The notes below the pieces were generated by a model that worked only from the letters and a program-made list of their open reading frames with translations, was not told the DNA's origin and did no database searches. The position numbers and the translations under genes are program-made. Shown here piece by piece: positions 2,486-61,001 of a stretch of DNA of 64,000 nucleotides (positions within the stretch are counted from its first letter, which is position 1; each line of letters starts with the position of its first letter). Origin of the DNA: Parcubacteria group bacterium Gr01-1014_38 (GTDB lineage: Bacteria; Patescibacteriota; Andersenbacteria; UBA10190; CAIZMI01); assembly GCA_007376145.1 (NCBI GenBank), contig VMFP01000004.1, positions 6,988-70,987 of the forward strand, written 5' to 3'.

Positions 2486-2914
2486 TTACCGCTTCTGCCA
2501 CTGTGGCGCCCGGCGGGCGCGCTTGAGTCCAGGCTTTTTGCGTTCCTTTTCTCGCGGGTCGCGGGTGAGCATGTCGGTGTCGCGCAGCGGTTTGCGGAAG
2601 CCTTCTTCCTGCTTTTCGAGCGCACGGGCGATGCCGAGCTTCACGGCACCAGCCTGCGCGTGAATCCCTCCGCCGCTTACCCGTACCGACACATCGAATT
2701 TTCCCCAACTGCCGGTGATCTCAAACGGCTGGCGGACGGGAGTTTGGAGTGCGACGATCGGGAAATACTCCTCCCACGGTCGCTGATTAATAAGGAAGGT
2801 CGTGGCGTCCTTGTCCTTGCCGCCACCCAAACTTCCTGCCGGGAGGAGACGCACCCGAGCGACGGCGGTTTTCCGTCTCCCCACGCCTTCAACGTACCGA
2901 GCTTGGTCAGGCAT
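2486..2914 (-). CDS. rpsI: 30S ribosomal protein S9
   Basis: Translation ends ...KKPGLKRARRAPQWQKR, which matches the S9 family along its full length. Confidence 0.95.
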   Translation of the reverse strand: MPDQARYVEGVGRRKTAVARVRLLPAGSLGGGKDKDATTFLINQRPWEEYFPIVALQTPVRQPFEITGSWGKFDVSVRVSGGGIHAQAGAVKLGIARALEKQEEGFRKPLRDTDMLTRDPREKERKKPGLKRARRAPQWQKR

Positions 2915-3341
2915 TGGCTCCTCCTTTCTGCGCCAGGTGTGGATGCTCCGCGCCTTGGTAGAGCTTTAAGCGAAGAATCATCCGATGGCGCAGGCGGTTC
3001 TTCGGGAGCATGTTCCAAATCGCGTCCCGCACGACGGTACGCGAGTCACGCTCGAGGCGTTTACGGAGCGAGAGAATTCGGACGGCGCCGGGCTTCCGCT
3101 GCGTGTGGCGCATATAGACTTTCGTCTCTCTTTTGGTTCCCGTGACGCGAACACGGTCGGTATTCGTGACGACCACGATGGCGCCCGTATCACGGTACGG
3201 GACCCACTGGGGATGATCTTTCCCGCGAAGGGCGATGGCAACCTCGGTCGCCAGGCGCCCGAGGACGTGTTCCTCCGCGTTGTAGAACCGCCAGGGACGG
3301 TGGGCCTCTGACGGTTGGCTCGTACGCTTGGGAGCAGTCAT
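2907..3341 (-). CDS. rplM: 50S ribosomal protein L13
   Basis: L13-like sequence (…WRFYNAEEHVLGRLATEVA…). Start chosen at ATG 3341 (MTAPKRT); the track ORF extends to 3386. Confidence 0.9.
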   Translation of the reverse strand: MTAPKRTSQPSEAHRPWRFYNAEEHVLGRLATEVAIALRGKDHPQWVPYRDTGAIVVVTNTDRVRVTGTKRETKVYMRHTQRKPGAVRILSLRKRLERDSRTVVRDAIWNMLPKNRLRHRMILRLKLYQGAEHPHLAQKGGANA

Positions 3342-3345
3342 GAGA

Positions 3346-3696
3346 TTAGACGAACTCAATGAGGACTTGCGGTGCGTGATCACCACTACGGTGCGTCGGG
3401 AGTCGCGTCATGCGCGTATAGCCGCCCGGTCGGCTCCGGTACGCGTCGGCGCGTTTCAGGAGTAGCGCTGCCGCCTGGCGATTCCCGAGTGCCGCAATGA
3501 GACGTCGCCGGGACGTCAGAGTATTTGCTTTTGCGGTGGTCACGAGCGGCTCGACAAACTGCCGCACAAACTGGGCCCGTGCCGGCGTGGTGGCAATCTT
3601 TCCGTGCGTGATGAGGGCAATGCCCAGTTTCCGCGCGAGCGCTCGGCGCTCGGCAGGCGTGCGCGACAGGGTGAATTTCGCTCGACGGTGTCTCAT
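3346..3696 (-). CDS. rplQ: 50S ribosomal protein L17
   Basis: MRHRRAKFTLSRTPAERRAL… matches the L17 family; located downstream of rpoA as in the alpha operon. Confidence 0.9.
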   Translation of the reverse strand: MRHRRAKFTLSRTPAERRALARKLGIALITHGKIATTPARAQFVRQFVEPLVTTAKANTLTSRRRLIAALGNRQAAALLLKRADAYRSRPGGYTRMTRLPTHRSGDHAPQVLIEFV

Positions 3697-4775
3697 CCGG
3701 CAGAGTGTTCCTCGCGGAGGCTCACGCCGAGTTTGGTCAGCCCGCTCTCAATCTCTTCCAAGGCCTTCTCGCCAAGCCCTGGAATGCCGAGCATCTGACT
3801 CCGCGTCTTCAACACGAGCCCAGCGACGGTTTTGATACCTTCCTTCTCCAGAAGGTTCTGAATCCGGGTCGCAATGGGGAGCTCCACCACACTGGTGAGC
3901 CTGGGATCCTTCGCGAGTTCCTCCGGCGCCCGCACCGCTCCTGCAACAGCGGTCTCCACGAGACGCGCGGGCGTTTCGATCTCGGTGAGCGGCGGCACCG
4001 ATTCTCCTGGCCCTGCGGTCACAGTCAGTCGGGGGGCGACCGGTGCCTCCTCAACTGGGAGAGCTTCCCGCCGCGTGGTGAGCCGCTCGTGGACGTCGGT
4101 TGCGAGTGCTCCGAAGTGATCCTGGAGAATGGACGCGGCAGCGGACAGGGCGTCACGCGGCGTCACCGTGCCATCGGTCCGGATCGTCATGATGAGTTTG
4201 TGGTACTCCGTGATCTGGCCGACTCGCACATTTTCCACACGGAAACTTACCCGCTCTACCGGCGTAAAAATGGCGTCCACCGCAATGGTCTCTAAGGCAC
4301 GCTCTTCGTTTTCGCGCAACTCGACCGGCACGTACCCCCGACCCTGCTCAGAGGTGAGCGTCATATCCAACGTTGCCTTGTCGTCGGTGAGGTGGGCAAT
4401 CACATGGTCCGGATTCGCGATCTCCACGTTCGCGACCTTCTCAATGTCCCCCGCGGTGACCGTCCGCGCACCGGTGGCTTTGATGCGGAGCTCTACCGGA
4501 GTGTCGGTATGCAGTTTGATCCGGATGCGCTTGATGTTGAGGAGAATGCTGACGAAATCTTCCGCCACACCGGGGAGTGTGGAGAACTCGTGCTCAATTC
4601 CCTCGCAGCGGACCGCGGTAATCGCCGCCCCGGGAAGCGAGGAGAGAAGGACGCGACGCAGTGCATTGCCAACCGTCGGTCCGTATCCAGGGAAGTACGG
4701 ACTGATTTCAAACGTTGCCTCGTTCCCTTCTTCCTTCATCAGGGTGATGGTGCTGGGGAGAAGAATTTTATCCAT
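3693..4775 (-). CDS. rpoA: DNA-directed RNA polymerase subunit alpha
   Basis: N-terminal domain (…FEISPYFPGYGPTVGNALRRVLLSSLPGAA…) and C-terminal domain (…LPIATRIQNLLEKEGIKTVAGL…) typical of RpoA. Confidence 0.95.
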   Translation of the reverse strand: MDKILLPSTITLMKEEGNEATFEISPYFPGYGPTVGNALRRVLLSSLPGAAITAVRCEGIEHEFSTLPGVAEDFVSILLNIKRIRIKLHTDTPVELRIKATGARTVTAGDIEKVANVEIANPDHVIAHLTDDKATLDMTLTSEQGRGYVPVELRENEERALETIAVDAIFTPVERVSFRVENVRVGQITEYHKLIMTIRTDGTVTPRDALSAAASILQDHFGALATDVHERLTTRREALPVEEAPVAPRLTVTAGPGESVPPLTEIETPARLVETAVAGAVRAPEELAKDPRLTSVVELPIATRIQNLLEKEGIKTVAGLVLKTRSQMLGIPGLGEKALEEIESGLTKLGVSLREEHSAG

Positions 4776-4805
4776 GGTCTACGTCAGGTTTTACGGGTAA
4801 ACGGG

Positions 4806-5429
4806 TTAGCGCGAGTAGAATTCTACGACCGCGCGGAGGTCTACCGGAATCTCGGCTGGATCTGGCCGCGGAACGTCAATGACCTTCCCCGTCCACGGAT
4901 CCTCCCGCTTCAGCCAAGAAGGAAGAGTTTTCGTCGCCGTCCGCTCCGCCAGGTTGGTGAAGATCGGCTTTCCACGCTTCGCTTCCTTAATCTGAATCAC
5001 GTCATTCACCTTCACCGGGTACGAGGGGAGGTCCACCCGCCGGCCGTTCACCGCCATGAGCCCGTGGTGGACGAGTTGGCGAGCATGGGCCTGCGAGTGT
5101 GCGAAGCCGAGGCGGTACACAATCCGATCCAAGCGGGATTCCAACCGGGTAATGAGCGCATCAGCGGTCACGCCGCGTTCTGAACGTGCCTCGCGGAAGT
5201 ACCGCTGCAATTGACGCTCGCGAATGTTGTAGATAGCGCGGAGTGCTTGCTTCTCTTTCAGCTGCGCTCCGTACTCCGTCGGTGCGCGGCGCCTCTGCCC
5301 ATGGATGCCGGGCGGGTACGGACGCTGCACAATTGGACACTTCGGCGTGAAGCATTTCTCTCCCTTGAGGAAGAGCTTCGCGCCGGCGAGGCGACAACGA
5401 GCACACACGTGATCAAAGGCAATAGCCAT
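4806..5429 (-). CDS. rpsD: 30S ribosomal protein S4
   Basis: MAIAFDHVCARCRLAGAKLFLKGEKCFTPKCP… zinc-ribbon N-terminus and S4 domain. Confidence 0.95.
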   Translation of the reverse strand: MAIAFDHVCARCRLAGAKLFLKGEKCFTPKCPIVQRPYPPGIHGQRRRAPTEYGAQLKEKQALRAIYNIRERQLQRYFREARSERGVTADALITRLESRLDRIVYRLGFAHSQAHARQLVHHGLMAVNGRRVDLPSYPVKVNDVIQIKEAKRGKPIFTNLAERTATKTLPSWLKREDPWTGKVIDVPRPDPAEIPVDLRAVVEFYSR

Positions 5430-12697: not shown

Positions 12698-14497
12698 TTA
12701 CACGTGGAGCCCGCCAAGCGGAGGGGGTGGCAGAGGAGGGGGCTGGACGCGCACGCGGCCTGACGCGATCGGGGATCGTCCCTGCTCCGCTCCACGCGCG
12801 CCGAGCTTGAAACGCTTGCGTTCGGCACGAACAATCGCCAAACACTCCGGGCAGTACTTTTCCTTCCCAGGAACTGGCTCAAAGGGAACCTCCGTTGCCC
12901 GTCCGCACCGATCGCAGGTGATGGGGTACGCCCGCTTCAGACGCTGCGGCTCTTCCTGTCGGAGACGATCCTCGAGACTCGCGATCTGCTGACCAGACGG
13001 CGCCACGACGGCGTTCTCCAAGGCTTCAACGGGCGGGAGCGCGCGCTCGGGCGTTCGTGTGTGTGGTCGAGGAAATTCTCGACGTTCACTGTGGTCGGAA
13101 CGTTGCTGTTCTTGGCGCCGCTCGAAGGTATAGGCGGCGGATTCTTCCTCCCCGGCTTGTCGGAAGGTCTTGGAACTCCACCGACTAATCTTCTCTTCCA
13201 CAACTTCACGGGGGCGACCATGGCGCTCTCGTGAAACCCGGATGATCTTCTCCGCTTCCCCGTACCATGGGGATCGTGAGCCGAGAGGAATCGTCATCAT
13301 GGAAAACGGCTTGCTCGCGGTCCCGTCAATCATGAGCTTGATGTAGGCATTGTACTTGTCGAGGTTCACGAGATCCGTTTCCGTAAAGTGCGGAGCGAAT
13401 TCCCGCTCGAGGAACTCCGCATCGTAGGCGCCAATTCGGAAGCACAGGGTGGTTCCCACGTTCCCGAAGACGGCGTCGCGCACTTCCTCTGACATCTGGG
13501 TAATGTACTGATGCGCCATGATGATATCCAGGCGGTACTTCCGAGCTTCGCTCAAAATAGTCGCAAACGACTCCGTGGCAAAATTCTGGAACTCGTCTAC
13601 GTACAGGTAGAAATCCTGACGCTGTTCCTCGGGAAGCTGCGCGCGGTCCATGGCGGCCAGTTGAATCTTCGTAATCATCATTGCCCCGAGGAGCGCGGCG
13701 TTGTCTTCTCCAATCTTCCCTTTTGAGAGATTCATGATGAAGACTTTTTTCTGGTCCATAATCTCCCGGAGATCAATGGTGGAGTTGGGCTGACCAATGA
13801 TGTTCCGGATGATGCTGCTCGTCAGAAACTGTCCGACTTTGTTTTGGATCGGGGCAATCGCCTCCTGGCGGAACCGCTCGTTGTACTGTGCGAATTCGTC
13901 CACCCAGAATGACTTCACAACGGGATCGCGGATGTTCGAGACAATCTCCTTCCGAAAGTCCTTGTCCACGAGAATCCGCAGGATACCGAGGAGCGTGTTC
14001 CCCGGCGAGTCCAGGAGGGCCAAAATGGTATTCCGGAGAATGTATTCGAGCCGGGGTCCCCACGAATCAGCCCAGAGCTTCTTGAAGACACCGACGAGAC
14101 CCGACGTAACGAGGTTTTTCTCCTGGGCGAAACGGGAGTCCTCCGGGCGGACCGTTTCTAGGACGTTGAAGGCGACGGGGAACTCCGCGTCTGACGGATC
14201 AAAGTAAATAACGTCGTTGATGCGGTTCGGTGATACGTAGTCGAGCATCGTGGTGGCAAAGTCCCCATGGGGATCAACAACTGCCAACCCCTCGCCGTGC
14301 TGAATATCTTGGATCGCCATGTTCTCGAGGACCGTCGTCTTTCCGGACCCAGTTTTTCCAATGACGTAGAGGTGTCGGCGGCGATCATCGCGCTTAATCC
14401 CGAATGCGCGCCGGACATTACGAAAGTTGGTTTCGCCGACAACCGTGATAAGTTCTGGTGAGACGGTAGGGCTCATGTGTGCGTTCCCAGTATACAA
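12698..14497 (-). CDS. TrwB/VirD4/TraD-like (DUF87-type) P-loop ATPase with C-terminal zinc ribbon
   Basis: Walker A VIGKTGSGKTT and Walker B-like LYVDEFQNF. C-terminal C-x2-C…C-x2-C (ITCDRCGRATEV…KYCPECL) precedes a Pro-rich tail. No N-terminal TM segment. Confidence 0.8.
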   Translation of the reverse strand: MYTGNAHMSPTVSPELITVVGETNFRNVRRAFGIKRDDRRRHLYVIGKTGSGKTTVLENMAIQDIQHGEGLAVVDPHGDFATTMLDYVSPNRINDVIYFDPSDAEFPVAFNVLETVRPEDSRFAQEKNLVTSGLVGVFKKLWADSWGPRLEYILRNTILALLDSPGNTLLGILRILVDKDFRKEIVSNIRDPVVKSFWVDEFAQYNERFRQEAIAPIQNKVGQFLTSSIIRNIIGQPNSTIDLREIMDQKKVFIMNLSKGKIGEDNAALLGAMMITKIQLAAMDRAQLPEEQRQDFYLYVDEFQNFATESFATILSEARKYRLDIIMAHQYITQMSEEVRDAVFGNVGTTLCFRIGAYDAEFLEREFAPHFTETDLVNLDKYNAYIKLMIDGTASKPFSMMTIPLGSRSPWYGEAEKIIRVSRERHGRPREVVEEKISRWSSKTFRQAGEEESAAYTFERRQEQQRSDHSERREFPRPHTRTPERALPPVEALENAVVAPSGQQIASLEDRLRQEEPQRLKRAYPITCDRCGRATEVPFEPVPGKEKYCPECLAIVRAERKRFKLGARGAEQGRSPIASGRVRVQPPPLPPPPLGGLHV

Positions 14498-53930: not shown

Positions 53931-54092
53931 AGAGCACCTCCAGAAAATGGGAAAAGGGTATTCGACAGCAGAGAGGAACGATAACGTTCCGCTTCTGCGC
54001 CGAGCAGCGCCTTATTCCCGTAAAGGTGCTCTTGGAAAGGAGCAGGATGCGATGCTAGCACGTACTTCCCGTTCTGTCAACCTCCAGGAGAC

Positions 54093-54142
54093 AACAAGAA
54101 AAAACCCCGCACTGGATTCACTTCGGTGAATCCGCTGCGGGG
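54093..54142 (-). terminator. rho-independent terminator with UUCG tetraloop, downstream of the 54164..54577 gene
   Basis: 17-bp stem CCCCGCACTGGATTCAC-TTCG-GTGAATCCGCTGCGGGG (54105-54142). Minus-strand U-tract corresponds to plus-strand A6 at 54099-54104. Confidence 0.65.
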
Positions 54143-54163
54143 CAAAAAGGAAGATGCTGCTCG

Positions 54164-54577
54164 CTACCCGACAATCGTGCAGATTCTGACGATCCGCACG
54201 CCTCGCAGGTTGCCATCGTCTGGAAAGAAACCATATTCATGGGTGCGGTCGGTCACCAAGTGGAGGTTGCCACTCTGGATCGCGTCGAGAAGAAGTTGGC
54301 GAGCCTCGTCCTCACTAACGAAGTCACCACGCTGGCGACTGTAGTAGAGGTACAAGACGGAGGCGGGTGTATCCGTCATCGGGTTCCCGACCTTGACCTT
54401 GATCTTCATGATCTCGGGCGTGTCGTCGTTCGGCGGAAAGCCATATTCGACGAAGCGATCCGTCATGATGTCGAGGTTCTCCTCTTCTACAGCCTGGCGG
54501 ACGATACGTCGCGCCTCTTCATGAGGCACGAACTTACGTTGCTTGAGGTCGAAGTACAGGGTGTGGCGCGCTGCCAT
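54164..54577 (-). CDS. hypothetical protein with internal tandem duplication
   Basis: Two about 45-aa repeats (FVPHEEARRIVRQAVEEENLDIMTDRFVEYGFPPNDD / FVSEDEARQLLLDAIQSGNLHLVTDRTHEYGFFPDDG). GGAGG RBS; followed by a terminator. Confidence 0.55.
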   Translation of the reverse strand: MAARHTLYFDLKQRKFVPHEEARRIVRQAVEEENLDIMTDRFVEYGFPPNDDTPEIMKIKVKVGNPMTDTPASVLYLYYSRQRGDFVSEDEARQLLLDAIQSGNLHLVTDRTHEYGFFPDDGNLRGVRIVRICTIVG

Positions 54578-54989
54578 ACGTCCTCCTGAGAGAGTGTTGA
54601 GGTTTAGTTGTCCAAAGAGATAAAAATCCTAGCAGTAAACAGCCTTCCTGTCAAGGTTCGCTGAAGATACGCGTCAGACGTGATACACTAGCAAGACCTC
54701 TCTCCAATGATCGAATCGAAGTTCAGTGAATTCTTTCGGAGTCCGCTCGGCGTGCTCTCGGTGATCGGCGTGATTTTTGTCGCTGGCGTTCTCGTCTTTC
54801 TTTTTGTCGCGCGCGTCTTCCGCGGCCTGATTGAACAAGCCCCGCCGGTGCTGTACTAATTCGCAAGCCAGCCCCACTTCGCCAAAAGCTCCGCGGGGCA
54901 CAACCTCTCCCCGGAGAGGCTGTGGAAAAGTGGGGGTTGACGGCGGTTCGCAGTGCGATACGCTCAGTTCAGAACAGCTTTTTCCAACT

Positions 54990-55180
54990 TTTGGCGTTCA
55001 GTCGGAGTGAAGTGGGTGAAATTCCCACGCTGTGCCGCAACGGTAATTACCCTTAAGCAGCGTCGAAGGGTAAAAGTCCGATCTTCCTCTGAACGATTCT
55101 CGTTCTCCCGAGCAGGAGTGTCGTAAAGACAACGATTGTTGGTGCGTTGCGCCCTGTTCGAGAGAACAGGATTTTTTCTT
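54990..55180 (+). promoter_or_regulatory. cobalamin (AdoCbl) riboswitch with intrinsic-terminator expression platform
   Basis: Conserved core GGTGAAATTCC (55015-55025), then …CTGTGCCGCAACGGTAAT… and a B12-box-like AGTCCGATCTTCC. Followed by terminator CCTGTTCGAGAGAACAGG+TTTTTT (55153-55177). Gene start at 55197. Confidence 0.6.
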
Positions 55181-55196
55181 AATTGTGCGCGCACAC

Positions 55197-55736
55197 ATGC
55201 CGAGCACATTCTTCGCAAAATTCCGTCGCTTCGGGCCTGAAGCGCTCTCACTCGCCCTGCTTCTTCCGCTTGTCCTCGTCCTGGGGTTCGTCCTAACGCG
55301 GTTTCCGAAGGATAGTGTCGTCACGCCGCCTGCGCCGTCCCCAACCGGTAGCATTGTCTCTCCAGCAGCCACCCCGACCAGTTCTCCGGAAGCTTCTCCG
55401 GTATTCAAAGCTCAAACACAGATCATCACCCTCGAAATTCGTGGTCCGGAGGGGTCCGCAACCTACCGGCTACCGGCGCAGGCAGAAGCATCCGTCGCGG
55501 ACCTTCTCGTTCGCGCTTCACTAGAACAGGGGCTTCGCCTGGAAACCAAAGACTACGGAGGGTCACTCGGGATCTTTGTGAAAGCACTCAACGGCTCCCG
55601 TAATGACCCGAAGCGCAAACTGTACTGGTCCTTGTACGTCAATGGGGTGTTCTCGCAACTCGGCGCTTCCAGCGCACGGGTACGCCCCGGCGACAGCGTG
55701 ACCTGGGCGTACGAGCCGATGCACGAAGAGCAATGA
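55197..55736 (+). CDS. DUF4430-domain protein (transcobalamin/intrinsic-factor beta-domain-like, putative corrinoid-binding) with N-terminal anchor and Pro/Ser/Thr linker
   Basis: …DYGGSLGIFVKALNGSRNDPKRKLYWSLYVNGVFSQLGASSARVRPGDSVTWAYE matches the DUF4430 signature (YW.YVNG…GD.[IV].W.Y). Confidence 0.7.
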   Translation: MPSTFFAKFRRFGPEALSLALLLPLVLVLGFVLTRFPKDSVVTPPAPSPTGSIVSPAATPTSSPEASPVFKAQTQIITLEIRGPEGSATYRLPAQAEASVADLLVRASLEQGLRLETKDYGGSLGIFVKALNGSRNDPKRKLYWSLYVNGVFSQLGASSARVRPGDSVTWAYEPMHEEQ

Positions 55737-57739
55737 TCCGGCGACGGTGGCACTGGTGGGGACTCGGCTGGGGCTTCGTACTTATCGCCGCAGCGGGCGC
55801 ACTCGGGCAAGGAGCCGACGGCGTTTCTGTTTCTCTCCGCATTGAAGGAAGCACGACGACCGTGTTCGAGGGCACGGTGACCGCGACGCCCTGCACCATT
55901 ACCGATACCGCGGGGAAAGAGCACGCCCTGCCCGCAGTAGCAGCCTGTGCGCTCCAGAAAGCAGCGCAAGAGCGGAAATTCGCCACAAGCTTCCAGGATT
56001 TCGGATTCGGCTTGTTCCTGAAAAAGATTGCCGGAGACGATACGCCGCCTGATTTTTCCCGATCCTGGAACTTCTGGGTGAACGACGATCCCGCCAGCGT
56101 TGGATTGGATACCTACGCGGTGACACCGAATGACCGGATTCTCCTCGCCTTTGCTCCGTATCCCGGCGTTCCGCTGCGCGTCACGGCGCCGGAGAAAGCA
56201 ATACTCGGGACTTCTCTTCCTGTCCGGGTCGAAAAGCGCGTGGGGGACTTCGACGCGCAGTTCGTCTGGCACGGACGCTGGGAGCCCGCCGCCGGCGCAA
56301 CGCTTCACGTGGGTGACGCTGCGCATCTGGTCCCGAGCGACGGCACGGTCACCCTGACGTTTCCAGAGTCAGGATCGTTCCCACTCTCCGCCGATGGATC
56401 CGGATTCGTCCGGAGCGCTCGGAGGACACTCGCCGTGGCCGCGCCCTCGCCGAGTCCCACCCCGTCTCCTTCCCCCTCCCCGACGCCAACACCAGCACCG
56501 ACGCCAACGCCGACAGCCGCGCCAAGCCCGACGCCGAGTCCGCAACCGACACCGGTGCCCGATGTCTCTCCGGAGCAGCGGCGCGAGCGCGCTCGTTCCG
56601 CGCTCCGGTATCTGCGCAGTCAGCAGCGCGACGGAGGCGACATTGACGGCGACATCGTGACCGCGTGGAGCGCGATCGCGTTCGGGGCGAATGAAGAGCG
56701 CGGCAAGACAATTCGCAGCGATCAGTCTTCCCTTCTGGACGCGCTGACACGTGGCCGACTCATCTCCGCGACAGATATCGAGCGTCACATCCTCGCGGTC
56801 CGAGCAACCGGAGCAAATCCACGCTCGTTCAACGGCAGTGATCTCCTCCAGCTCCTGCGCCAGCGCGTTCGGAACGGACAGATCGGCGAAGAAACACTGG
56901 TGAATGACGATATCTTCGGCATTCTTGCGTTCGTTGCGGCGGGGGAACCGGCAAACGATGCAGACGTTCAGAGCGCCGTGCGCACTGTCCTTCAGTACCA
57001 GGTAGGAGATGGATCGTTCGGCGGCCTTGATTTGACCGCAGCGGCGATGCAATCCCTCCACGCGTATACCGTTCGCGGCGGAAGCCAGCAGGTAAGCACC
57101 GCCCTCGACCGGGCACGCGCGCACCTCCGCTCCCGCCAGGACCGCTTCGGCGGCTTCGGAGAAAATTCTGCGACGACTGCCTGGGCACTGCAAGCACTCG
57201 TCGCAGTTGGCGAGGATCCAGCGACCTGGCGTACCACGGATGGCGCCACGCCGTGGACAGCGCTTCTCCGATACCAAAACGCGGGCGGGGGCTTCGGGTG
57301 GAAAACACGCGAGGACGTTTCGCCGTTCATGACGGCCTATGCAGTGCCGGCACTGCTTGGTGTGCCGTGGCCTGTCACACTTCTCGGCATCGAGTCCGCT
57401 TTCGCAGCTCCGGTCTCTTCCCCGACCCCAACGCCCACGGCAGCGCCGCGGCCGCGCGTCGCGGGAACCGCTGCCGGAGCGCCATCAGCAGTCACCGCGA
57501 CGGTTGCATCGCCCGCCCCGTCTCGCGCGCTGTCGTCCATGACTAACCAGTCATCCGAGACGGCAACAGCACCGACGTCCGTGCCTACCGCTGACAGCGA
57601 AATGCTCCGCACACCTCCCGGATTTGTTCCCCTCGCCTCGGTTGACCGGCAGTTCGCGCTCACGCTGTTTGGCGCTGCGAATATCGGTGTCGGGCTTTCG
57701 GTGGCACGCATCATCAGCAAACTGCGAGGCAGCCTTTAG
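55733..57739 (+). CDS. two-domain surface protein: N-terminal DUF4430 + C-terminal prenyltransferase/terpene-cyclase-like alpha/alpha-toroid repeats, PT-rich linkers, C-terminal TM anchor
   Basis: N-terminal …FGFGLFLKKIAGDD…WNFWVNDDPASVGLDTYAVTPNDRILLAF. Repeats QQRDGGDI…, VGDGSFGG…, RQDRFGGFGENSATTAWALQAL, QNAGGGFGW. PSPTPSPSPSPTPTP linker. Terminal hydrophobic helix. Confidence 0.65.
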   Translation: MIRRRWHWWGLGWGFVLIAAAGALGQGADGVSVSLRIEGSTTTVFEGTVTATPCTITDTAGKEHALPAVAACALQKAAQERKFATSFQDFGFGLFLKKIAGDDTPPDFSRSWNFWVNDDPASVGLDTYAVTPNDRILLAFAPYPGVPLRVTAPEKAILGTSLPVRVEKRVGDFDAQFVWHGRWEPAAGATLHVGDAAHLVPSDGTVTLTFPESGSFPLSADGSGFVRSARRTLAVAAPSPSPTPSPSPSPTPTPAPTPTPTAAPSPTPSPQPTPVPDVSPEQRRERARSALRYLRSQQRDGGDIDGDIVTAWSAIAFGANEERGKTIRSDQSSLLDALTRGRLISATDIERHILAVRATGANPRSFNGSDLLQLLRQRVRNGQIGEETLVNDDIFGILAFVAAGEPANDADVQSAVRTVLQYQVGDGSFGGLDLTAAAMQSLHAYTVRGGSQQVSTALDRARAHLRSRQDRFGGFGENSATTAWALQALVAVGEDPATWRTTDGATPWTALLRYQNAGGGFGWKTREDVSPFMTAYAVPALLGVPWPVTLLGIESAFAAPVSSPTPTPTAAPRPRVAGTAAGAPSAVTATVASPAPSRALSSMTNQSSETATAPTSVPTADSEMLRTPPGFVPLASVDRQFALTLFGAANIGVGLSVARIISKLRGSL

Positions 57740-57749
57740 CCTTCTGCGC

Positions 57750-58307
57750 ATGAAGCGTATCGCCGGGGGAACAATCGTGGTGTTGAGTCTCATTCTTCTC
57801 TCGGCCGCGGCTCGGCTGTTTCCACATCCGGCAAACGTTTCACCAATCGCGGCGATTGCGCTCCTCGGGGGAGCGTCACTGCATCTTCCCTGGGCGCTTG
57901 CTGCACCTGGCGCGGCGATGCTCTTGTCAGACCTCGTGATCGGGTTCGACCGCCTTCCGATTACGCTCTCCGTGTACGGATCATTCTTCGCAAGCGTTTT
58001 CCTCGGGCGGTGGCTCCGCGGTCGGTCCAGCCCGTGGCGCACGCTCGGCACCGCGCTTGCAAGTTCCATCCTGTTTTACCTCGTCACGAATGCGGCGGTG
58101 TGGTGGTTCTCGGGACTGTACGCGCAGACCTTCGATGGCTTGATGCTTTCCTACTTCTACGCCATCCCTTTCTTCCGCCACACGCTGCTGGGCGACCTTG
58201 GGTACACCGTGGCGCTCTTCTGGGCGTACGAGTACGCTCCGCGCCTTGCCATCTTCTCATTCCGCCACCAACAGAGTCCGTCGCGTCAGCACGTGTCTGT
58301 GAGGTGA
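57750..58307 (+). CDS. small polytopic membrane protein (5-6 TM), candidate corrinoid permease / ECF S-component-like
   Basis: ATG at 57750 (MKRIAGGTIVVLSLILLSAA…). Last gene of the riboswitch-led operon. Confidence 0.5.
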   Translation: MKRIAGGTIVVLSLILLSAAARLFPHPANVSPIAAIALLGGASLHLPWALAAPGAAMLLSDLVIGFDRLPITLSVYGSFFASVFLGRWLRGRSSPWRTLGTALASSILFYLVTNAAVWWFSGLYAQTFDGLMLSYFYAIPFFRHTLLGDLGYTVALFWAYEYAPRLAIFSFRHQQSPSRQHVSVR

Positions 58308-58330
58308 AACGCTCCATCCAGGCAGACGGA

Positions 58331-59410
58331 ATGGCTGGCCTGTTCCGTTTTTTTCGCCCTGTGGTACAGTCTCCTGTCATGCATCGAACAGGGGTCGCAG
58401 ACCAACCGCTCCCATCTTCGCTTGAGCGGGTGCACCAGGGCGTTCTGCGGGTACTGCACGACGTCCGTCTGCCCTCCCGGCCGACATTTTCTGAACTCCT
58501 ACGAAAAGAATGGAGTCCCGTCCCGCCCGTTGAACTCTCCGCATCCGCGCTCCACGAGGAGGAGATGAATCGCTTGTATGAACTTCGCGCCCAGCTCCTG
58601 GACTGGACAGTGGAAACCGGTTTCCTGGGGTTCTTCGATGAGAACGCCGGCCGACGATATATTTACACGCGCCGACTCGAGGTTTTTGAGGAAGTACTTC
58701 CCGATCTCCGTGGAAAGCGTGTTCTCGAGATTGGGTGCGCGGCAGGGATCGTTGCCGCCCTTCTCGCTCCATCCTGCCAAGAGTTTATCGGCATTGACGT
58801 CACGGAAACGGCGGTGCAGTTTGCTCGTCAGCTCCACCGGGAGCTTGGCATCTTCAACAGCCGGTTTTTCGTTGCCGATGCCCACGCGCTCCCATTTCCA
58901 GACCGACGGTTTGATGTTCTCGCGAGTACGGAGACATTTGAACATCTCCTCCACCCCGCGAAGGCGCTGGAAGAATTCCACCGCGTGCTCGTGCCGGGAG
59001 GAAGTATTACCCTCACAACCACGACAGCGCTCACACCCTCCGATCTTGCCGTGAAGCTCATTCGGCTCTTTAAGCGAGATTTTTACGTTGATACCGAGGA
59101 GCAATTCGACAAAAAGGCGTACCTGGCTGCCCAGGAGAAAGGCCTCGCGGTCCCTCCAGAGGTCTTCCGACGCGTGCATCGCCGATTTGGATACGCGAAT
59201 CTCGTTCGTCTCTTCCAGCGTCAGGGATTTTCTGTTGAGCGTGCGAAAGGCGCGGTCCTCGCCTTCCCGCCCGTCTACCTTGCCGTCTATCAGTTTTTTC
59301 CGCAGTCGCTGCTCCCTGTGGTACGGTGGGGAGAAGAACTCTTAAATGAGCTGGGCATTTTCAAGCGCTTTGGCTCGGTTACGACAGGGTTTCACCTCCG
59401 GCGTCTCTAA
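58331..59410 (+). CDS. class I SAM-dependent methyltransferase
   Basis: Motif I VLEIGCAAGIVAALLA and Methyltransf_11-like core. Start is ambiguous (ATG at 58331 or 58379). Confidence 0.75.
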   Translation: MAGLFRFFRPVVQSPVMHRTGVADQPLPSSLERVHQGVLRVLHDVRLPSRPTFSELLRKEWSPVPPVELSASALHEEEMNRLYELRAQLLDWTVETGFLGFFDENAGRRYIYTRRLEVFEEVLPDLRGKRVLEIGCAAGIVAALLAPSCQEFIGIDVTETAVQFARQLHRELGIFNSRFFVADAHALPFPDRRFDVLASTETFEHLLHPAKALEEFHRVLVPGGSITLTTTTALTPSDLAVKLIRLFKRDFYVDTEEQFDKKAYLAAQEKGLAVPPEVFRRVHRRFGYANLVRLFQRQGFSVERAKGAVLAFPPVYLAVYQFFPQSLLPVVRWGEELLNELGIFKRFGSVTTGFHLRRL

Positions 59411-59462
59411 CCGCATCAAGAAGAGTCGCGAGCGACGCGGACCGCTCCGCCGCGCGCTCTTC

Positions 59463-61001
59463 ATGGTGGTGTTCCCCCACCTTGGTCTCATCGGTGTTTT
59501 GGCGGTCGCCCTCGCTGCTCGCCTGATCTACCTCCGTTGGTTCAAGACCTTCCCACCGGGCGACGTTTTCAATTTCATCACGATCGCGCAAGGAATCCCT
59601 CAAGGAATCTATTCGGCAGACGAACGACGGCTTCCGTTTTATCCCTTGCTGATCCTCATGGCGCACACGGTACTCGAATGGGAATATGCCGGACTTGTTG
59701 TCGCCGTTGCCGCATCACTCGCCGGGCTTCTGGCCCTCTATACGCTGGGGCGGACACTGGGGTTTTCGAAAACCGCGCTCGTCGCCCTTCTGCTGGTCCT
59801 TCAGACGCATCCGCAGTTGATGACCGCGACTCGGGGGTATGCGGACACGACCTTGTTCGCGCTTCTTCCCGCCACATTGCTCGCACTGTTCCGTGCACGA
59901 ACCTGGAAAGGTGTGGTACTCGTTGGCGTGCTTTGCGGCGCGATGGCGCTGACTCGCTACGAGGGTCTGGCCGCTGCCGCGGTGCTTCTTCCGCTGTGGT
60001 TTCTGTTCCCGGTGGGACGCCCACGACGGTACGCCGCAATTGCCGTCCTGGTATGGATTCTTTCGCTTACCCCATACCTGCTCATTTCCGCCGCGAATAA
60101 CCGACCTCCGTTCGGCGTAGGCTACGTCGCGGACATCGAAGGACCGGAGGGCTACGGGTCCGCGAATTTCCGAGAATTCTGGGACAGCGGACGCACGATC
60201 TGGCAGCGGAACGGGCTGTTCGGCGCGTGGAAAATTCCATACGCGATCGCACGTGAGATTGCGGAAGACCCGTTTGCAACGCCGCGCATCCTTGCGGCGC
60301 GGCTCACCGCGCCGGGGGAGCCGTTGGCGCTTTTCGCGCTCCTCGGAGCACTGGTTCTTCTCCGCCGACGATGGCCGGTTCTCCTCTTTCTCCTTGCGGC
60401 TACGGCCGCAGCGAGCGCTCCGCCCGCGTGGTTCAACCCACTAAGACGGTATGATATCGTCGTCCTTCCGCTTCTCTTCCTTCTCGCGGCGAGCGGAGTA
60501 AGCGCCATCCAGAGCCTTCTGGAACGCGGTACGGCGTTCGGCGGCAGCGCCGGAAGAGCGATACGCTGGCTTGCCGGATTCGCCTTCGCTACGGTGGCGG
60601 CAGGATTCTGGACCGCGACCTACGCAGAGGAAGTCCGAAACCGCCAACTGAAGCACAACGGACGAGAGTATGCCTACTACCAGGCGATCCACGCCGCTCG
60701 TGCGCTCCAAGGCAAGATCCTCTTTGAGCGCGCGGGGATAACCGCCGAGTTTTATTTTGGTGCACGAGGAGTGTACCTCCTCGATCAGTTTATCCGCGCT
60801 GGCGTACCGCCCCAGGAAATTCTGCCCCGACTCCGGGTCGAAGGGGTACGGTACGCGGTTGTCTCTGAATCTCACGCGAAAGCATTTCCATTCCTTGATG
60901 GTCCCTCCGTGCGGGAAGTGTCTCTCTTCGAATGGCCGCGCCCAGGAGGCGATATCAGCCGCGCAACAATTTATGAGATTCTCATTGCCGAGAACCGCTA
61001 G
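59463..61001 (+). CDS. GT-C-fold glycosyltransferase (ArnT/PMT-like) polytopic membrane protein
   Basis: Multi-TM protein with a DE-containing first loop (…IYSADERRLPFYP…). ATG at 59463. Confidence 0.55.
   Translation: MVVFPHLGLIGVLAVALAARLIYLRWFKTFPPGDVFNFITIAQGIPQGIYSADERRLPFYPLLILMAHTVLEWEYAGLVVAVAASLAGLLALYTLGRTLGFSKTALVALLLVLQTHPQLMTATRGYADTTLFALLPATLLALFRARTWKGVVLVGVLCGAMALTRYEGLAAAAVLLPLWFLFPVGRPRRYAAIAVLVWILSLTPYLLISAANNRPPFGVGYVADIEGPEGYGSANFREFWDSGRTIWQRNGLFGAWKIPYAIAREIAEDPFATPRILAARLTAPGEPLALFALLGALVLLRRRWPVLLFLLAATAAASAPPAWFNPLRRYDIVVLPLLFLLAASGVSAIQSLLERGTAFGGSAGRAIRWLAGFAFATVAAGFWTATYAEEVRNRQLKHNGREYAYYQAIHAARALQGKILFERAGITAEFYFGARGVYLLDQFIRAGVPPQEILPRLRVEGVRYAVVSESHAKAFPFLDGPSVREVSLFEWPRPGGDISRATIYEILIAENR

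Follow-up and report, generated by a model that had tools for sequence, protein, structure and literature searches.

Riboswitch-Controlled Transcobalamin-Like Surface Proteins of a Parcubacterium Are Encoded with a DUF6580 Membrane Protein, a Proposed Corrinoid Transporter

Operon Organisation

The three-gene unit described here is probably a corrinoid (vitamin B12) capture-and-import operon that is shut off by B12. It is found in a MAG of a groundwater member of the Parcubacteria (CPR) with a tiny genome, in a 64-kb stretch that was analysed in full and is referred to below as the window. Corrinoid scavenging had been proposed in a first-pass annotation made from the sequence alone, and this reading is supported by a cobalamin-class riboswitch, by the homology of a beta-grasp domain to that of transcobalamin and by a membrane protein with an S-component fold. 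The latter protein, a member of the DUF6580 family, is proposed to be a corrinoid transporter, which points to the family as a widespread B12 importer.

The list of open reading frames contains three nearly abutting genes on the + strand at 55197-58307, at the positions assigned to them previously. The public annotation (P0001, 100% identity) agrees on the start of gene C.

55197-55736, + strand: gene A, 179 aa counted from the ATG (the open frame begins at GTG 55185)
55733-57739, + strand: gene B, 668 aa, with a 4 nt overlap with gene A
57750-58307, + strand: gene C, 185 aa, 10 nt beyond the stop of gene B

No ABC-ATPase-like ORF was found in the 64-kb window with a motif screen (Walker A and LSGGQ), and a search of the same window for a B12-dependent enzyme found none.

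Leader RNA and Riboswitch

The 5′ leader of the operon contains the following elements:

54937-54964, + strand: possible promoter (TTGACG, 16 nt spacer, TACGCT), about 10 nt 5′ of the aptamer; low confidence
54977-55147, + strand: cobalamin-class (AdoCbl-type) riboswitch aptamer, identified by covariance-model matches, motifs and compensatory changes
55153-55177, + strand: intrinsic terminator (expression platform), with a stem at 55153-55170 (CCTGTTC-GAGA-GAACAGG) followed by TTTTTT

The possible promoter was picked out by reading the sequence, and it scores under the threshold of the promoter scan. The presence of a cobalamin-class riboswitch and a terminator directly 5′ of the operon bears out the B12 control suggested earlier. 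The aptamer, at 54977-55147, sits outside the interval covered by the first-pass annotation (55197-58307). Its core is arranged in the order GGUGAAAUUCC, 8 nt, GCCGCAACGG, a variable hairpin, AAGUCCGAUC, the 3′ strand of P1 and the CUCCCGAGCAGGAG hairpin (55105-55118).

The cobalamin riboswitch clan of Rfam (CL00101) comprises RF00174, RF01482 and RF01689. A search of the window at gathering thresholds reported no match to this clan. In the E-value mode, AdoCbl RF01482 was matched at 54981-55137 over model positions 1-149 of 149 with an E-value of 7.4e-6 and 40.8 bits, which falls short of the curated gathering threshold of 50 bits. Covariance model R2, built from other loci with the window element and its two closest relatives excluded, gave a single match across the whole 64 kb on both strands (98.3 bits, E ~8e-24), which is far beyond chance. 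The same aptamer motifs are present upstream of all orthologous operons; the GCCGCAACGG and AGUCCG elements are invariant, and compensatory base changes occur in two aptamer stems, P1 and the second stem. The window element therefore shares with the clan a conserved core, covarying stems, a B12-related 5′ leader and an expression platform. Gathering-level Rfam matches are found in the equivalent position in related loci L083, L088 and L110 (RF01689), L093 and L094 (RF00174) and L108 (RF01482).

The position of the element was also analysed with covariance model R1. In the loci picked by protein B, 56 of the 61 matches lie within 300 nt 5′ of an SLBB or toroid gene, as do 19 of the 27 matches in the loci picked by DUF6580, and the median distance from match to gene is about 45 nt. 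All but one of the 100 R1 matches listed are on the coding strand, the exception being a weak partial match in L055.

The terminator at 55153-55177 is the only terminator-like site within 54000-59600 (5.6 kb), and a comparable hairpin with a T-run follows the conserved hairpin in L082, L084-L087 and L089-L091. An alternative antiterminator can be formed by the pairing of 55099-55116 with 55153-55170 (16 of 18 pairs), and the long alternative helix is present in the minimum-free-energy fold of the leader. From this structure we infer the direction of the switch. In the ligand-free state, 55099-55116, which includes the conserved CUCCCGAGCAGGAG hairpin, would pair with 55153-55170 as an antiterminator and the operon would be transcribed; in the B12-bound state, the CUCCCGAGCAGGAG hairpin would be held in the aptamer, the terminator (55153-55170 and U6) would form and transcription would end before the ATG at 55197.

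Surface Proteins A and B

Protein A consists of an N-terminal membrane anchor (residues ~16-34), a Pro/Thr/Ser-rich stalk (~41-68) and a DUF4430/SLBB beta-grasp (nt ~55419-55727) with the motif ...YWSLYVNG...GASS...GDSVTWAYE. Protein B, encoded on the + strand, is composed of the following parts:

Residues 2-24: signal or anchor helix (AlphaFold2 model)
Residues 31-141, nt 55823-56155: SLBB beta-grasp (Pfam DUF4430 and AlphaFold2)
Residues 146-236: beta-sandwich (AlphaFold2 model)
Residues 237-279: PT linker (sequence; disordered at 243-260 in the model)
Residues 280-547, nt 56570-57373: alpha/alpha toroid (AlphaFold2, confident fold at 280-542)
Residues 556-634: PT/Ala-rich disordered stalk (sequence; disordered at 559-634 in the model)
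Residues 636-667: C-terminal transmembrane helix (AlphaFold2 model)

The mean pLDDT of the AlphaFold2 model of protein B is 84, exceeding 90 in the folded domains, and the pTM of 0.52 makes the interdomain geometry unreliable. The PT-rich linkers and both anchors reported in the first-pass annotation are visible in the sequence, and the model contains the corresponding disordered segments and terminal helices.

The two DUF4430 assignments, also made in that annotation, hold in a profile search: both protein A (52.6 bits, E 6.5e-14) and protein B (26.9 bits, E 6.8e-6) pass the curated Pfam cut-off of 23.8 bits for PF14478. In the model of protein B, the beta-grasp helix (70-81) precedes strands 85-89 and 94-99, which form a beta-hairpin insert. 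Both proteins have a hydrophobic helix in the N-terminal region, and the homology, the hairpin insert and the secreted or surface location are those of the DUF4430/SLBB clade. The 43 full-length orthologs of protein B are 41-65% identical, with nearly invariant Cys54 and Cys72, which likely form a disulfide. A small DUF4430 gene is found at the position of gene A in loci L081-L096, which keep the gene order of the window.

A profile of 39 prokaryotic SLBB domains (A4) was run against the whole PDB. Apart from a single bacterial DUF4430 structure, it matched only animal carriers, namely intrinsic factor (7e-6), haptocorrin (1.3e-6) and the beta domain of transcobalamin (2.6e-6); entries 4kki, 5no0, 3kq4, 2pmv and 2bb6 were found with E-values of 1e-6 to 4e-5, and no unrelated PDB entry was matched. 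At the level of sequence profiles, the beta domains of these three animal carriers are homologs of DUF4430.

The model of protein B and a Foldseek search bear out the claim that the domain order of the animal proteins is reversed, the toroid lying C-terminal to DUF4430. The top Foldseek matches include terpene cyclases, complement TED domains and transcobalamin (2bb5, 4zrp and others; E ~1e-6 to 1e-5). In the window protein, the prenyltransferase and terpene-cyclase Pfam matches of the toroid are sub-threshold (E 0.03-0.04). Among the orthologs, SQHop_cyclase_C is matched in 38 of 44 and Prenyltrans in 17 of 44, and at the family level these sequence matches are real. Pfam PF01122 (Cobalamin_bind) is matched in 8 of 44 orthologs at E ≤ 0.01 (best 7.6e-6), and no match to it was obtained in window protein B at E up to 0.1. 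The toroid sequence profile searched against the PDB gave E-values of 6e-8 for terpene cyclases and 2.5 for the transcobalamin alpha domain. The link between the toroid and the latter domain is thus drawn from the fold and from the eight PF01122-matching orthologs.

Membrane Protein C and Genomic Context

Protein C belongs to Pfam DUF6580 (PF20221; E 6e-42, 144-145 bits versus a gathering cut-off of 27). It is a small membrane protein with six or seven helices (the model shows seven helical segments) and the fold of the ECF S-component superfamily. BtuM is the top structural match by two methods, with 19-24% identity, and was not found in single-sequence or profile searches of the PDB at E up to 10. 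The only PDB match of the DUF6580 sequence profile is CbrT (E 1.3e-4, about 110 residues), and weak Pfam ECF_trnsprt and ECF-ribofla_trS matches occur in some DUF6580 members. The nearest relatives of protein C are the two characterised B12-specific S-components, BtuM and CbrT; the protein is not of an unrelated family, and the earlier suggestion of a permease is supported.

Residues R22, H26, N29, D61, T113, N114, W118 and G148-D149 are invariant in DUF6580. Protein C has no cysteine, and no conserved cysteine column was found among 32 DUF6580 members. At 50% identity, the family falls into about 5,000 clusters, and its members are encoded in no fewer than 586 species genomes of CPR, Ignavibacteriota, Planctomycetota, Bacteroidota and other taxa.

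An SLBB gene is present in 37 of 80 species-level DUF6580 loci, nearly always immediately upstream. In diderm loci L021 and L027, a riboswitch is followed by genes for a TonB-dependent receptor and DUF6580, with MetH next in L027, and in Planctopirus (L049) the order is riboswitch, DUF6580 and CobT (DMB phosphoribosyltransferase). DUF6580 loci thus display the B12 regulon membership or btuB co-location typical of the BtuM family. NrdJ (TIGR02504, 567-575 bits versus a cut-off of 400) is encoded directly upstream of the riboswitch-SLBB-DUF6580 unit in about 13 loci, with at least 47% identity. An ABC-ATPase-like ORF lies within 3 kb of DUF6580 in only 1 of 102 loci. In L088, an ABC ATPase gene starts 29 nt 3′ of DUF6580.

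Proposed Mechanism and Alternative Explanations

Proteins A and B would be displayed on the surface on Pro/Thr-rich stalks, A by its N-terminal and B by its C-terminal anchor. In the manner of transcobalamin, intrinsic factor and haptocorrin, the corrinoid would be clamped by the alpha/alpha toroid on one side and, on the other, by the SLBB/DUF4430 beta-grasp, provided either by protein B itself or by A. Domain homology suggests corrinoid binding in this capture step, and the “sandwich” between the domains of protein B is proposed by analogy. The ligand would then be handed to the DUF6580 protein, which would topple, as S-components do, to bring it through the membrane; the fold and the genomic context are consistent with transport, which may proceed without an ECF ATPase module, as in BtuM, or with one encoded elsewhere, as in CbrT. 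The likely B12 consumer, judging from relatives, would be the adenosylcobalamin-dependent ribonucleotide reductase NrdJ, because NrdJ is located directly upstream of the unit in many related loci.

The same biology would otherwise apply if DUF6580 were a conventional ECF S-component using EcfT/EcfA/EcfA' encoded elsewhere (“group II”), like CbrT, which we consider rather unlikely. As a rule, the genes of group II S-components are not linked to those of their ECF module, and the weak ECF-type Pfam matches and the ATPase gene of L088 agree with this explanation. In addition, no PDB entry besides CbrT was matched at the sequence level, and CbrT by itself does not transport (PMC5997447). However, ATPase-like ORFs are missing from the window and from the vicinity of DUF6580 in all but one locus, the top structural match is the module-independent BtuM, and DUF6580 is common in diderms (Ignavibacteriota, Planctomycetota, Bacteroidota) directly 3′ of a TonB-dependent receptor, the defining niche of BtuM. 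Another ligand, either an incomplete corrinoid (cobinamide) or a lower-ligand precursor (alpha-ribazole or DMB, cf. S-component CblT), is improbable, even though B12 riboswitches govern salvage genes besides uptake genes and CobT follows DUF6580 in Planctopirus. Cobinamide is also carried by ECF-CbrT (PMC5997447). The SLBB partner, however, is homologous to a corrin-binding domain, and the partners elsewhere are BtuB-like receptors, MetH and NrdJ. To our knowledge, CPR genomes generally lack cobamide assembly enzymes, which would make a precursor useless.

It appears very improbable that protein B is merely co-transcribed and unrelated to B12 binding, acting outside the cell as an enzyme (terpene cyclase or prenyltransferase) or as a protein resembling a protease trap (alpha-2-macroglobulin/complement TED-like). 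The best profile and fold matches of the toroid are indeed squalene-hopene cyclase, drimenyl diphosphate synthase and complement C3/C4/A2M, and the public names are “peptidase domain protein” and “terpene cyclase/mutase family protein”. However, the toroid reads NDD at the class II cyclase DxDD position and has no cysteine, and therefore it can form no thioester and offers no Cys for zinc binding; moreover, the toroid shares its polypeptide with the beta domain of a B12 carrier, protein B is either secreted or anchored, and its family genes have a B12 riboswitch directly upstream in the 56 of 61 loci mentioned above. Scavenging of heme or another tetrapyrrole is the least probable explanation. 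It was proposed for the ECF operon lsa1836-1840 of Lactobacillus sakei, which encodes split transcobalamin-like proteins; docking and uptake data tie these homologous alpha-like and beta-like proteins and the ECF transporter to heme uptake (bioRxiv 10.1101/864751). The operon of the window, in contrast, is governed by a cobalamin-clan riboswitch, and B12 enzymes are neighbours in related loci.

Comparison with Known Systems

The novelty implied for the architecture in the first-pass annotation was overstated. Bacterial surface proteins in which an alpha/alpha toroid is joined to either side of an SLBB beta-grasp were described by Burroughs, Balaji, Iyer and Aravind (2007, Biol Direct, PMC1796856), who also noted paired SLBB paralogs in operons and predicted B12 scavenging in hosts without the biosynthetic pathway. 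Those proteins and the window share the signal or anchor, the SLBB-toroid fusion and the second SLBB paralog in the operon. The operons described in 2007, mainly from Firmicutes, encode CbiO-like ATPases and CbiQ-like membrane proteins, and riboswitches are not mentioned, whereas the window features a DUF6580 membrane partner, no nearby ATPase, a CPR host, an added beta-sandwich and two Pro/Thr stalks. The transcobalamin-like architecture has thus been known since 2007 in either domain order, and the new part is the link to DUF6580.

The animal carriers transcobalamin, intrinsic factor and haptocorrin (PF01122 and DUF4430; 2BB5, 2PMV, 4KKI) contain the same modules, an alpha6/alpha6 toroid and a beta-grasp, the beta domains being homologous to that of protein B at the profile level and the toroids alike at the fold level. 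The carriers are soluble, with alpha preceding beta, whereas protein B is membrane-anchored and arranged as beta, beta-sandwich, long linker and alpha. Unlike the carriers, the window encodes a separate second beta-domain protein, and its toroid sequence is nearer to terpene cyclases. Protein B was not assigned to the eukaryotic cobalamin-binding protein family, given the lack of a PF01122 match, the reversed order and the membrane anchoring.

BtuM of Thiobacillus denitrificans (PMC6072759; 6FFV, 8OVV) resembles DUF6580 in size (~20 kDa), in its six or seven helices and S-component fold, and in its B12-regulon/BtuB context with no ECF module nearby. The BtuM family is defined by invariant Cys80, a cobalt ligand needed for function (PMC6072759). 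DUF6580 lacks Cys80 and has no significant sequence match to BtuM, which, in turn, has no extracellular binding-protein partner. ECF-CbrT of Lactobacillus delbrueckii (PMC5997447; 6FNP), the sequence-profile match of DUF6580, is a B12- and cobinamide-specific S-component. It strictly requires EcfT, EcfA and EcfA', but such genes are absent near DUF6580 in 101 of 102 loci. Membership of DUF6580 in the BtuM family was rejected, as there is no Cys80 equivalent or detectable sequence homology and the similarity is structural only.

Bacteroides BtuG and BtuH have a beta-propeller and other folds unrelated to the window proteins. They follow the same logic of riboswitch-controlled, high-affinity surface B12 binders feeding a membrane transporter (PMC8941943, PMC10404256), but pass B12 to an outer-membrane TonB-dependent transporter, unlike the window system.

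Significance

The B12 membrane transporter is still unidentified for most prokaryotes (PMC6072759). Our literature search found no mention of DUF6580 and no description of B12 uptake in CPR or of its riboswitch control. We tentatively suggest that DUF6580 may be a large unrecognised family of corrinoid importers working without an ECF ATPase, in which a His/Asp site replaces the BtuM cysteine, and which is fed in cell-wall-only lineages (CPR) by tethered transcobalamin-like receptors. If true, DUF6580 would be the first “binding-protein-assisted solitary S-component” transporter and, with its receptors, a prokaryotic counterpart of the carrier-to-receptor delivery of B12 in animals, perhaps related to its ancestor. 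Among these proteins, the B12 clamp of the transcobalamin type would exist in numerous natural forms, its domains fused, split or in reversed order, and these would be useful for studies of the origin of the animal carriers and for the engineering of B12 binders.

The proposal gives DUF6580 a testable function, that of the missing B12 importer in many bacteria without BtuCDF. For the ultra-small, host-dependent CPR bacteria, which probably cannot make B12, the operon may be a route to the cofactor. It would also bear on DNA precursor synthesis, because the cofactor serves the adenosylcobalamin-dependent ribonucleotide reductase encoded beside the unit in many relatives; if the proposal is true, DUF6580 would supply the B12-dependent enzyme that these minimal organisms need in order to make DNA.

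Organization of the operon

Three plus-strand ORFs fill positions 55197-58307, confirming the gene arrangement noted in the first-pass annotation:

55197-55736 (+): gene A, 179 aa
55733-57739 (+): gene B, 668 aa, with an ATG overlapping the stop codon of gene A
57750-58307 (+): gene C, 185 aa, starting 10 nt past the stop codon of gene B

The products of genes B and C are 100% identical to proteins of the MAG Parcubacteria group bacterium Gr01-1014_38. A scan of 54000-59600 revealed a sole terminator-like hairpin (55153-55170, followed by TTTTTT), located upstream of gene A, and none between the genes, so the three genes look like a single transcript. The gene order is preserved in the two closest relatives (loci L081 and L082). 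The flanking genes have polysaccharide and glycosylation functions and are unrelated to the operon.

A SAM-methyltransferase gene following on the plus strand (approximately 58330-59410) was rejected as a conserved part of the operon, being on the opposite strand in L081 and L082. The plus-strand frame at 58010-59410 matches Methyltransf_11 (E 6e-22) and overlaps a public 226-aa minus-strand call (58499-59179) without a Pfam match; the clear domain suggests that this public call is probably on the wrong strand. Two other genes called in the public record lie just upstream of the riboswitch and encode a 50-aa hydrophobic peptide (54707-54859, plus strand) and a 137-aa protein without a Pfam match (54164-54577, minus strand). 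Elsewhere in the window, 12698-14497 (minus strand) encodes a TraG/VirD4-like type IV secretion coupling protein with a zinc-finger C-terminus; its neighbours are the cell-wall and housekeeping genes for RpoA, AlaRS, a Mur ligase and a family-4 glycosyltransferase (MraY-type family).

Cobalamin riboswitch

The Rfam search of the whole window at the gathering threshold gave zero matches. This was not taken as absence, since both the E-value mode and comparative models recover a riboswitch. In E-value mode, the full RF01482 (AdoCbl) model aligned to 54981-55137 with 40.8 bits (E 7.4e-6; threshold 50). Every orthologous locus shares the elements GGTGnnAnTCC, 8 nt, GCCGCAACGG, AAGTCCG and CTCCCGAGCAGGAG, situated 60-250 nt 5' of the small DUF4430 gene, and RNAalifold showed that P1 and the GGG/CCC stem both contain compensatory changes. 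A covariance model built from 13 loci, with the window and its two nearest relatives excluded, produced exactly one match in a search of both strands of the 64 kb, at 54977-55147 (98.3 bits, E ~8e-24). The leaders of several relatives exceed the Rfam thresholds at the same position, as AdoCbl-II (L083, L088, L110), Cobalamin (L093, L094) or AdoCbl (L108). Hence, the riboswitch upstream of gene A is genuine despite its sub-threshold Rfam score, and the B12 control suggested earlier is supported by a cobalamin-class riboswitch with a terminator.

In the minimum-free-energy fold, 55099-55116 pairs with 55153-55170 (16 of 18 pairs), competing with the conserved hairpin and the terminator. Nine further orthologs likewise have this hairpin and a T-run 3' of the aptamer. 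The hairpin of L083 and L092 abuts the start codon, and its GGAG could act as a ribosome-binding site. B12 riboswitches usually act as OFF switches; this behaviour and the leader structure make an OFF switch most likely here as well.

An additional hairpin between GCCGCAACGG and AAGUCCG is present in the window (55040-55075), L085 and L092, and missing in other leaders (L083 3225-3335, L088 259-400), which belong to the Rfam class AdoCbl-II. This peripheral element is tied to the choice between AdoCbl and MeCbl or HyCbl as ligand. The preference may therefore differ among the orthologs, with MeCbl or HyCbl possibly favoured in L083 and L088.

DUF4430 proteins

Both A and B clear the Pfam curated cut-off for DUF4430, as expected from the first reading. 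In protein A, a Pro/Thr/Ser stalk joins an N-terminal membrane helix to the DUF4430 domain. The AlphaFold2 model of protein B (pLDDT 84) starts with a hydrophobic helix, followed by a beta-grasp domain (residues 31-141) and a beta-sandwich (146-236). A disordered PT linker leads on to an alpha/alpha toroid (280-542), and a long disordered segment rich in PT/Ala separates the toroid from a C-terminal transmembrane helix. The beta-grasp features a hairpin after the helix, the hallmark of the transcobalamin-like clade. The 44 orthologs conserve Cys54 and Cys72 almost without exception, which fits a putative extracytoplasmic disulfide.

When A, B and C were searched as single sequences against the PDB, only low-complexity (PT-repeat) or chance matches resulted, and profiles were needed. 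A DUF4430/SLBB profile of 39 prokaryotic domains from the fetched loci, searched against all PDB sequences, matched haptocorrin (E 1.3e-6), the isolated transcobalamin beta domain (2.6e-6), intrinsic factor (7e-6), full-length transcobalamins (mostly 4e-5, rat 4e-4), the bacterial DUF4430 structure 3u7z and nothing else. Matches limited to B12 carriers and 3u7z are direct evidence that DUF4430 is the B12-carrier beta domain.

For the toroid, Foldseek placed transcobalamins (2v3n, 2bb5, 2bb6, 4zrp, 8ixu) among the top matches (E 2e-6 to 1e-5, 300-340 aligned columns), with equal scores for squalene-hopene cyclase, drimenyl diphosphate synthase and the TED domains of complement/alpha-2-macroglobulin. 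The toroid sequence profile matches terpene cyclases best (E 6e-8) and did not significantly reach transcobalamin in the PDB (E 2.5); sequence homology of the alpha domain is therefore not claimed for protein B. Among the 44 orthologs of B, Pfam detected SQHop_cyclase_C in 38, Prenyltrans in 17 and Cobalamin_bind (PF01122) in 8. Thus, the proposal that B carries the two modules of the animal carriers in reversed order holds at the fold level but does not imply membership of the animal carrier family. The toroid has no cysteine and carries NDD at the DxDD position of cyclases, making an enzymatic or thioester role unlikely.

The DUF6580 membrane protein

Gene C encodes a DUF6580 protein (Pfam, E 6e-42) with a confident AlphaFold2 model (pLDDT 91). 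Foldseek ranks BtuM in complex with hydroxycobalamin first (8ovv; probability 1.0, TM 0.60-0.63, 24% identity). A 32-member DUF6580 profile gave a single PDB match (6FNP, E 1.3e-4), a 182-aa chain of ECF-CbrT named 'Membrane protein' and presumably its S-component CbrT. Among proteins of this fold, BtuM and CbrT are the two whose specificity for B12 is established by experiment (PMC6072759, PMC5997447). The suggestion of a permease downstream of the DUF4430 genes is thus strengthened, and C is a predicted transporter. DUF6580 falls outside the BtuM family: the invariant cysteine by which that family is defined is missing, and no sequence match between the two is detectable. The invariant H26 and D61 of DUF6580 possibly correspond to the conserved H28 and D67 of BtuM, which is a lead only.

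As for energization, DUF6580 working alone, like BtuM, is an option that we hold tentatively; dependence on a distant ECF module, like that of CbrT, seems slightly less likely. The fold match bears on the former and the profile match on the latter. An ABC-ATPase-like ORF lies within 3 kb in only one of 102 DUF6580 loci. In that locus (L088), an ABC-type ATPase gene (3681-4625) begins 29 nt after DUF6580, a possible clue to an energizing partner in some lineages.

DUF6580 is labelled just 'putative transport protein' by NCBI. No paper mentioning it was found in the literature searched, nor anything on a cobalamin riboswitch in Patescibacteria or on B12 and RNR in CPR.

Genomic context of DUF6580

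DUF6580 is present in at least 586 species-representative genomes and comprises approximately 5,000 clusters at 50% identity (E up to 1e-10). An SLBB gene occurs in 37 of 80 fetched DUF6580 loci, nearly always immediately upstream and co-directional; eight of these loci also carry a toroid protein. A cobalamin-type riboswitch lies 5' of the SLBB-DUF6580 unit in many loci. Among 80 metagenome loci picked via protein B, 61 contain a riboswitch match (E up to 0.01), in every case on the coding strand; for 56 of the 61, an SLBB or toroid gene follows at a distance of at most 300 nt. In diderms, the order is riboswitch, TonB-dependent receptor, DUF6580 (L021, L027), followed by MetH in L027; in Planctopirus (L049), it is riboswitch, DUF6580, CobT.

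In about 13 loci, the gene for NrdJ, the AdoCbl-dependent ribonucleotide reductase, ends directly 5' of the riboswitch-SLBB-DUF6580 unit (TIGR02504, 567-575 bits; cut-off 400):

approximately 2600-5400 in each of L003, L005, L006, L010, L012, L014, L038, L041, L042, L064, L067, L073 and L076: NrdJ gene upstream of the unit

About seven further loci have a more distant RNR at this position. Some NrdJ copies are very long (1100-1600 aa), suggesting inteins. In the window, no B12-dependent enzyme was found among the 10 ORFs scanned or by BLAST with NrdJ.

Locus L005 (DATBWR010000004.1), labelled Candidatus Nanoarchaeia archaeon, combines a riboswitch above the Rfam threshold with NrdR, NrdJ, SLBB and DUF6580 genes; it is the one locus with scanned neighbours, and NrdR precedes NrdJ there. 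NrdR is a bacterial-type regulator, which makes the archaeal label doubtful; the contig is either mis-binned or carries an unusual archaeal riboswitch. An archaeal occurrence of the system was set aside on this ground.

A second cobalamin-type riboswitch is found just 3' of DUF6580 on the same strand in five loci:

L006 7126-7305
L012 7105-7233
L019 6546-6715
L030 1775-1942
L042 7075-7214

The ORF right after it (360-520 aa) lacks both a Pfam match and an obvious signal peptide. These ORFs share 40% identity between L006 and L019, and 25-30% for L042, L030 and L003:7162-8556. In L006 and L030, a 145-154 aa ORF and a TraG/VirD4-like coupling ATPase lie on the same strand within ~2 kb. The ORFs may represent an unknown B12-regulated cytoplasmic protein family.

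Proposed function and relation to known systems

The best-supported reading of the operon is a B12-repressed capture-and-import system. The riboswitch and terminator present in the leader would repress transcription. The tethered surface proteins would clamp a corrinoid between beta-grasp and toroid, as homology suggests, and import would proceed through DUF6580, judging from its fold and regulon membership. The cofactor would probably be used by NrdJ, judging from the relatives. Corrinoid scavenging, as suggested by the first-pass annotation, accords with the riboswitch, the carrier-type beta domain, the BtuM/CbrT-like fold and the B12-regulon context.

Burroughs et al. (2007) had described this beta-grasp clade in bacteria, fused to alpha/alpha toroids on either side, with paired paralogs in operons of hosts without B12 biosynthesis, and had proposed that the proteins scavenge B12 and that the animal carriers are of bacterial origin (PMC1796856). 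Those operons contain CbiO-like and CbiQ-like components, whereas here the membrane partner is DUF6580. In Lactobacillus sakei, an operon that encodes an ECF transporter together with separate alpha-like and beta-like proteins has been linked to heme (bioRxiv 10.1101/864751). Both the binding proteins and their control by a riboswitch are thus known in type, and a specialist would expect this function from a B12-riboswitch operon. The pairing of SLBB binding proteins with a distinct BtuM/CbrT-like family in CPR, together with family-wide evidence of a B12 regulon, appears to be undescribed. For DUF6580, a large family so far without an assigned function, the analysis provides a concrete, testable annotation, and for CPR bacteria it offers a plausible route of B12 supply.
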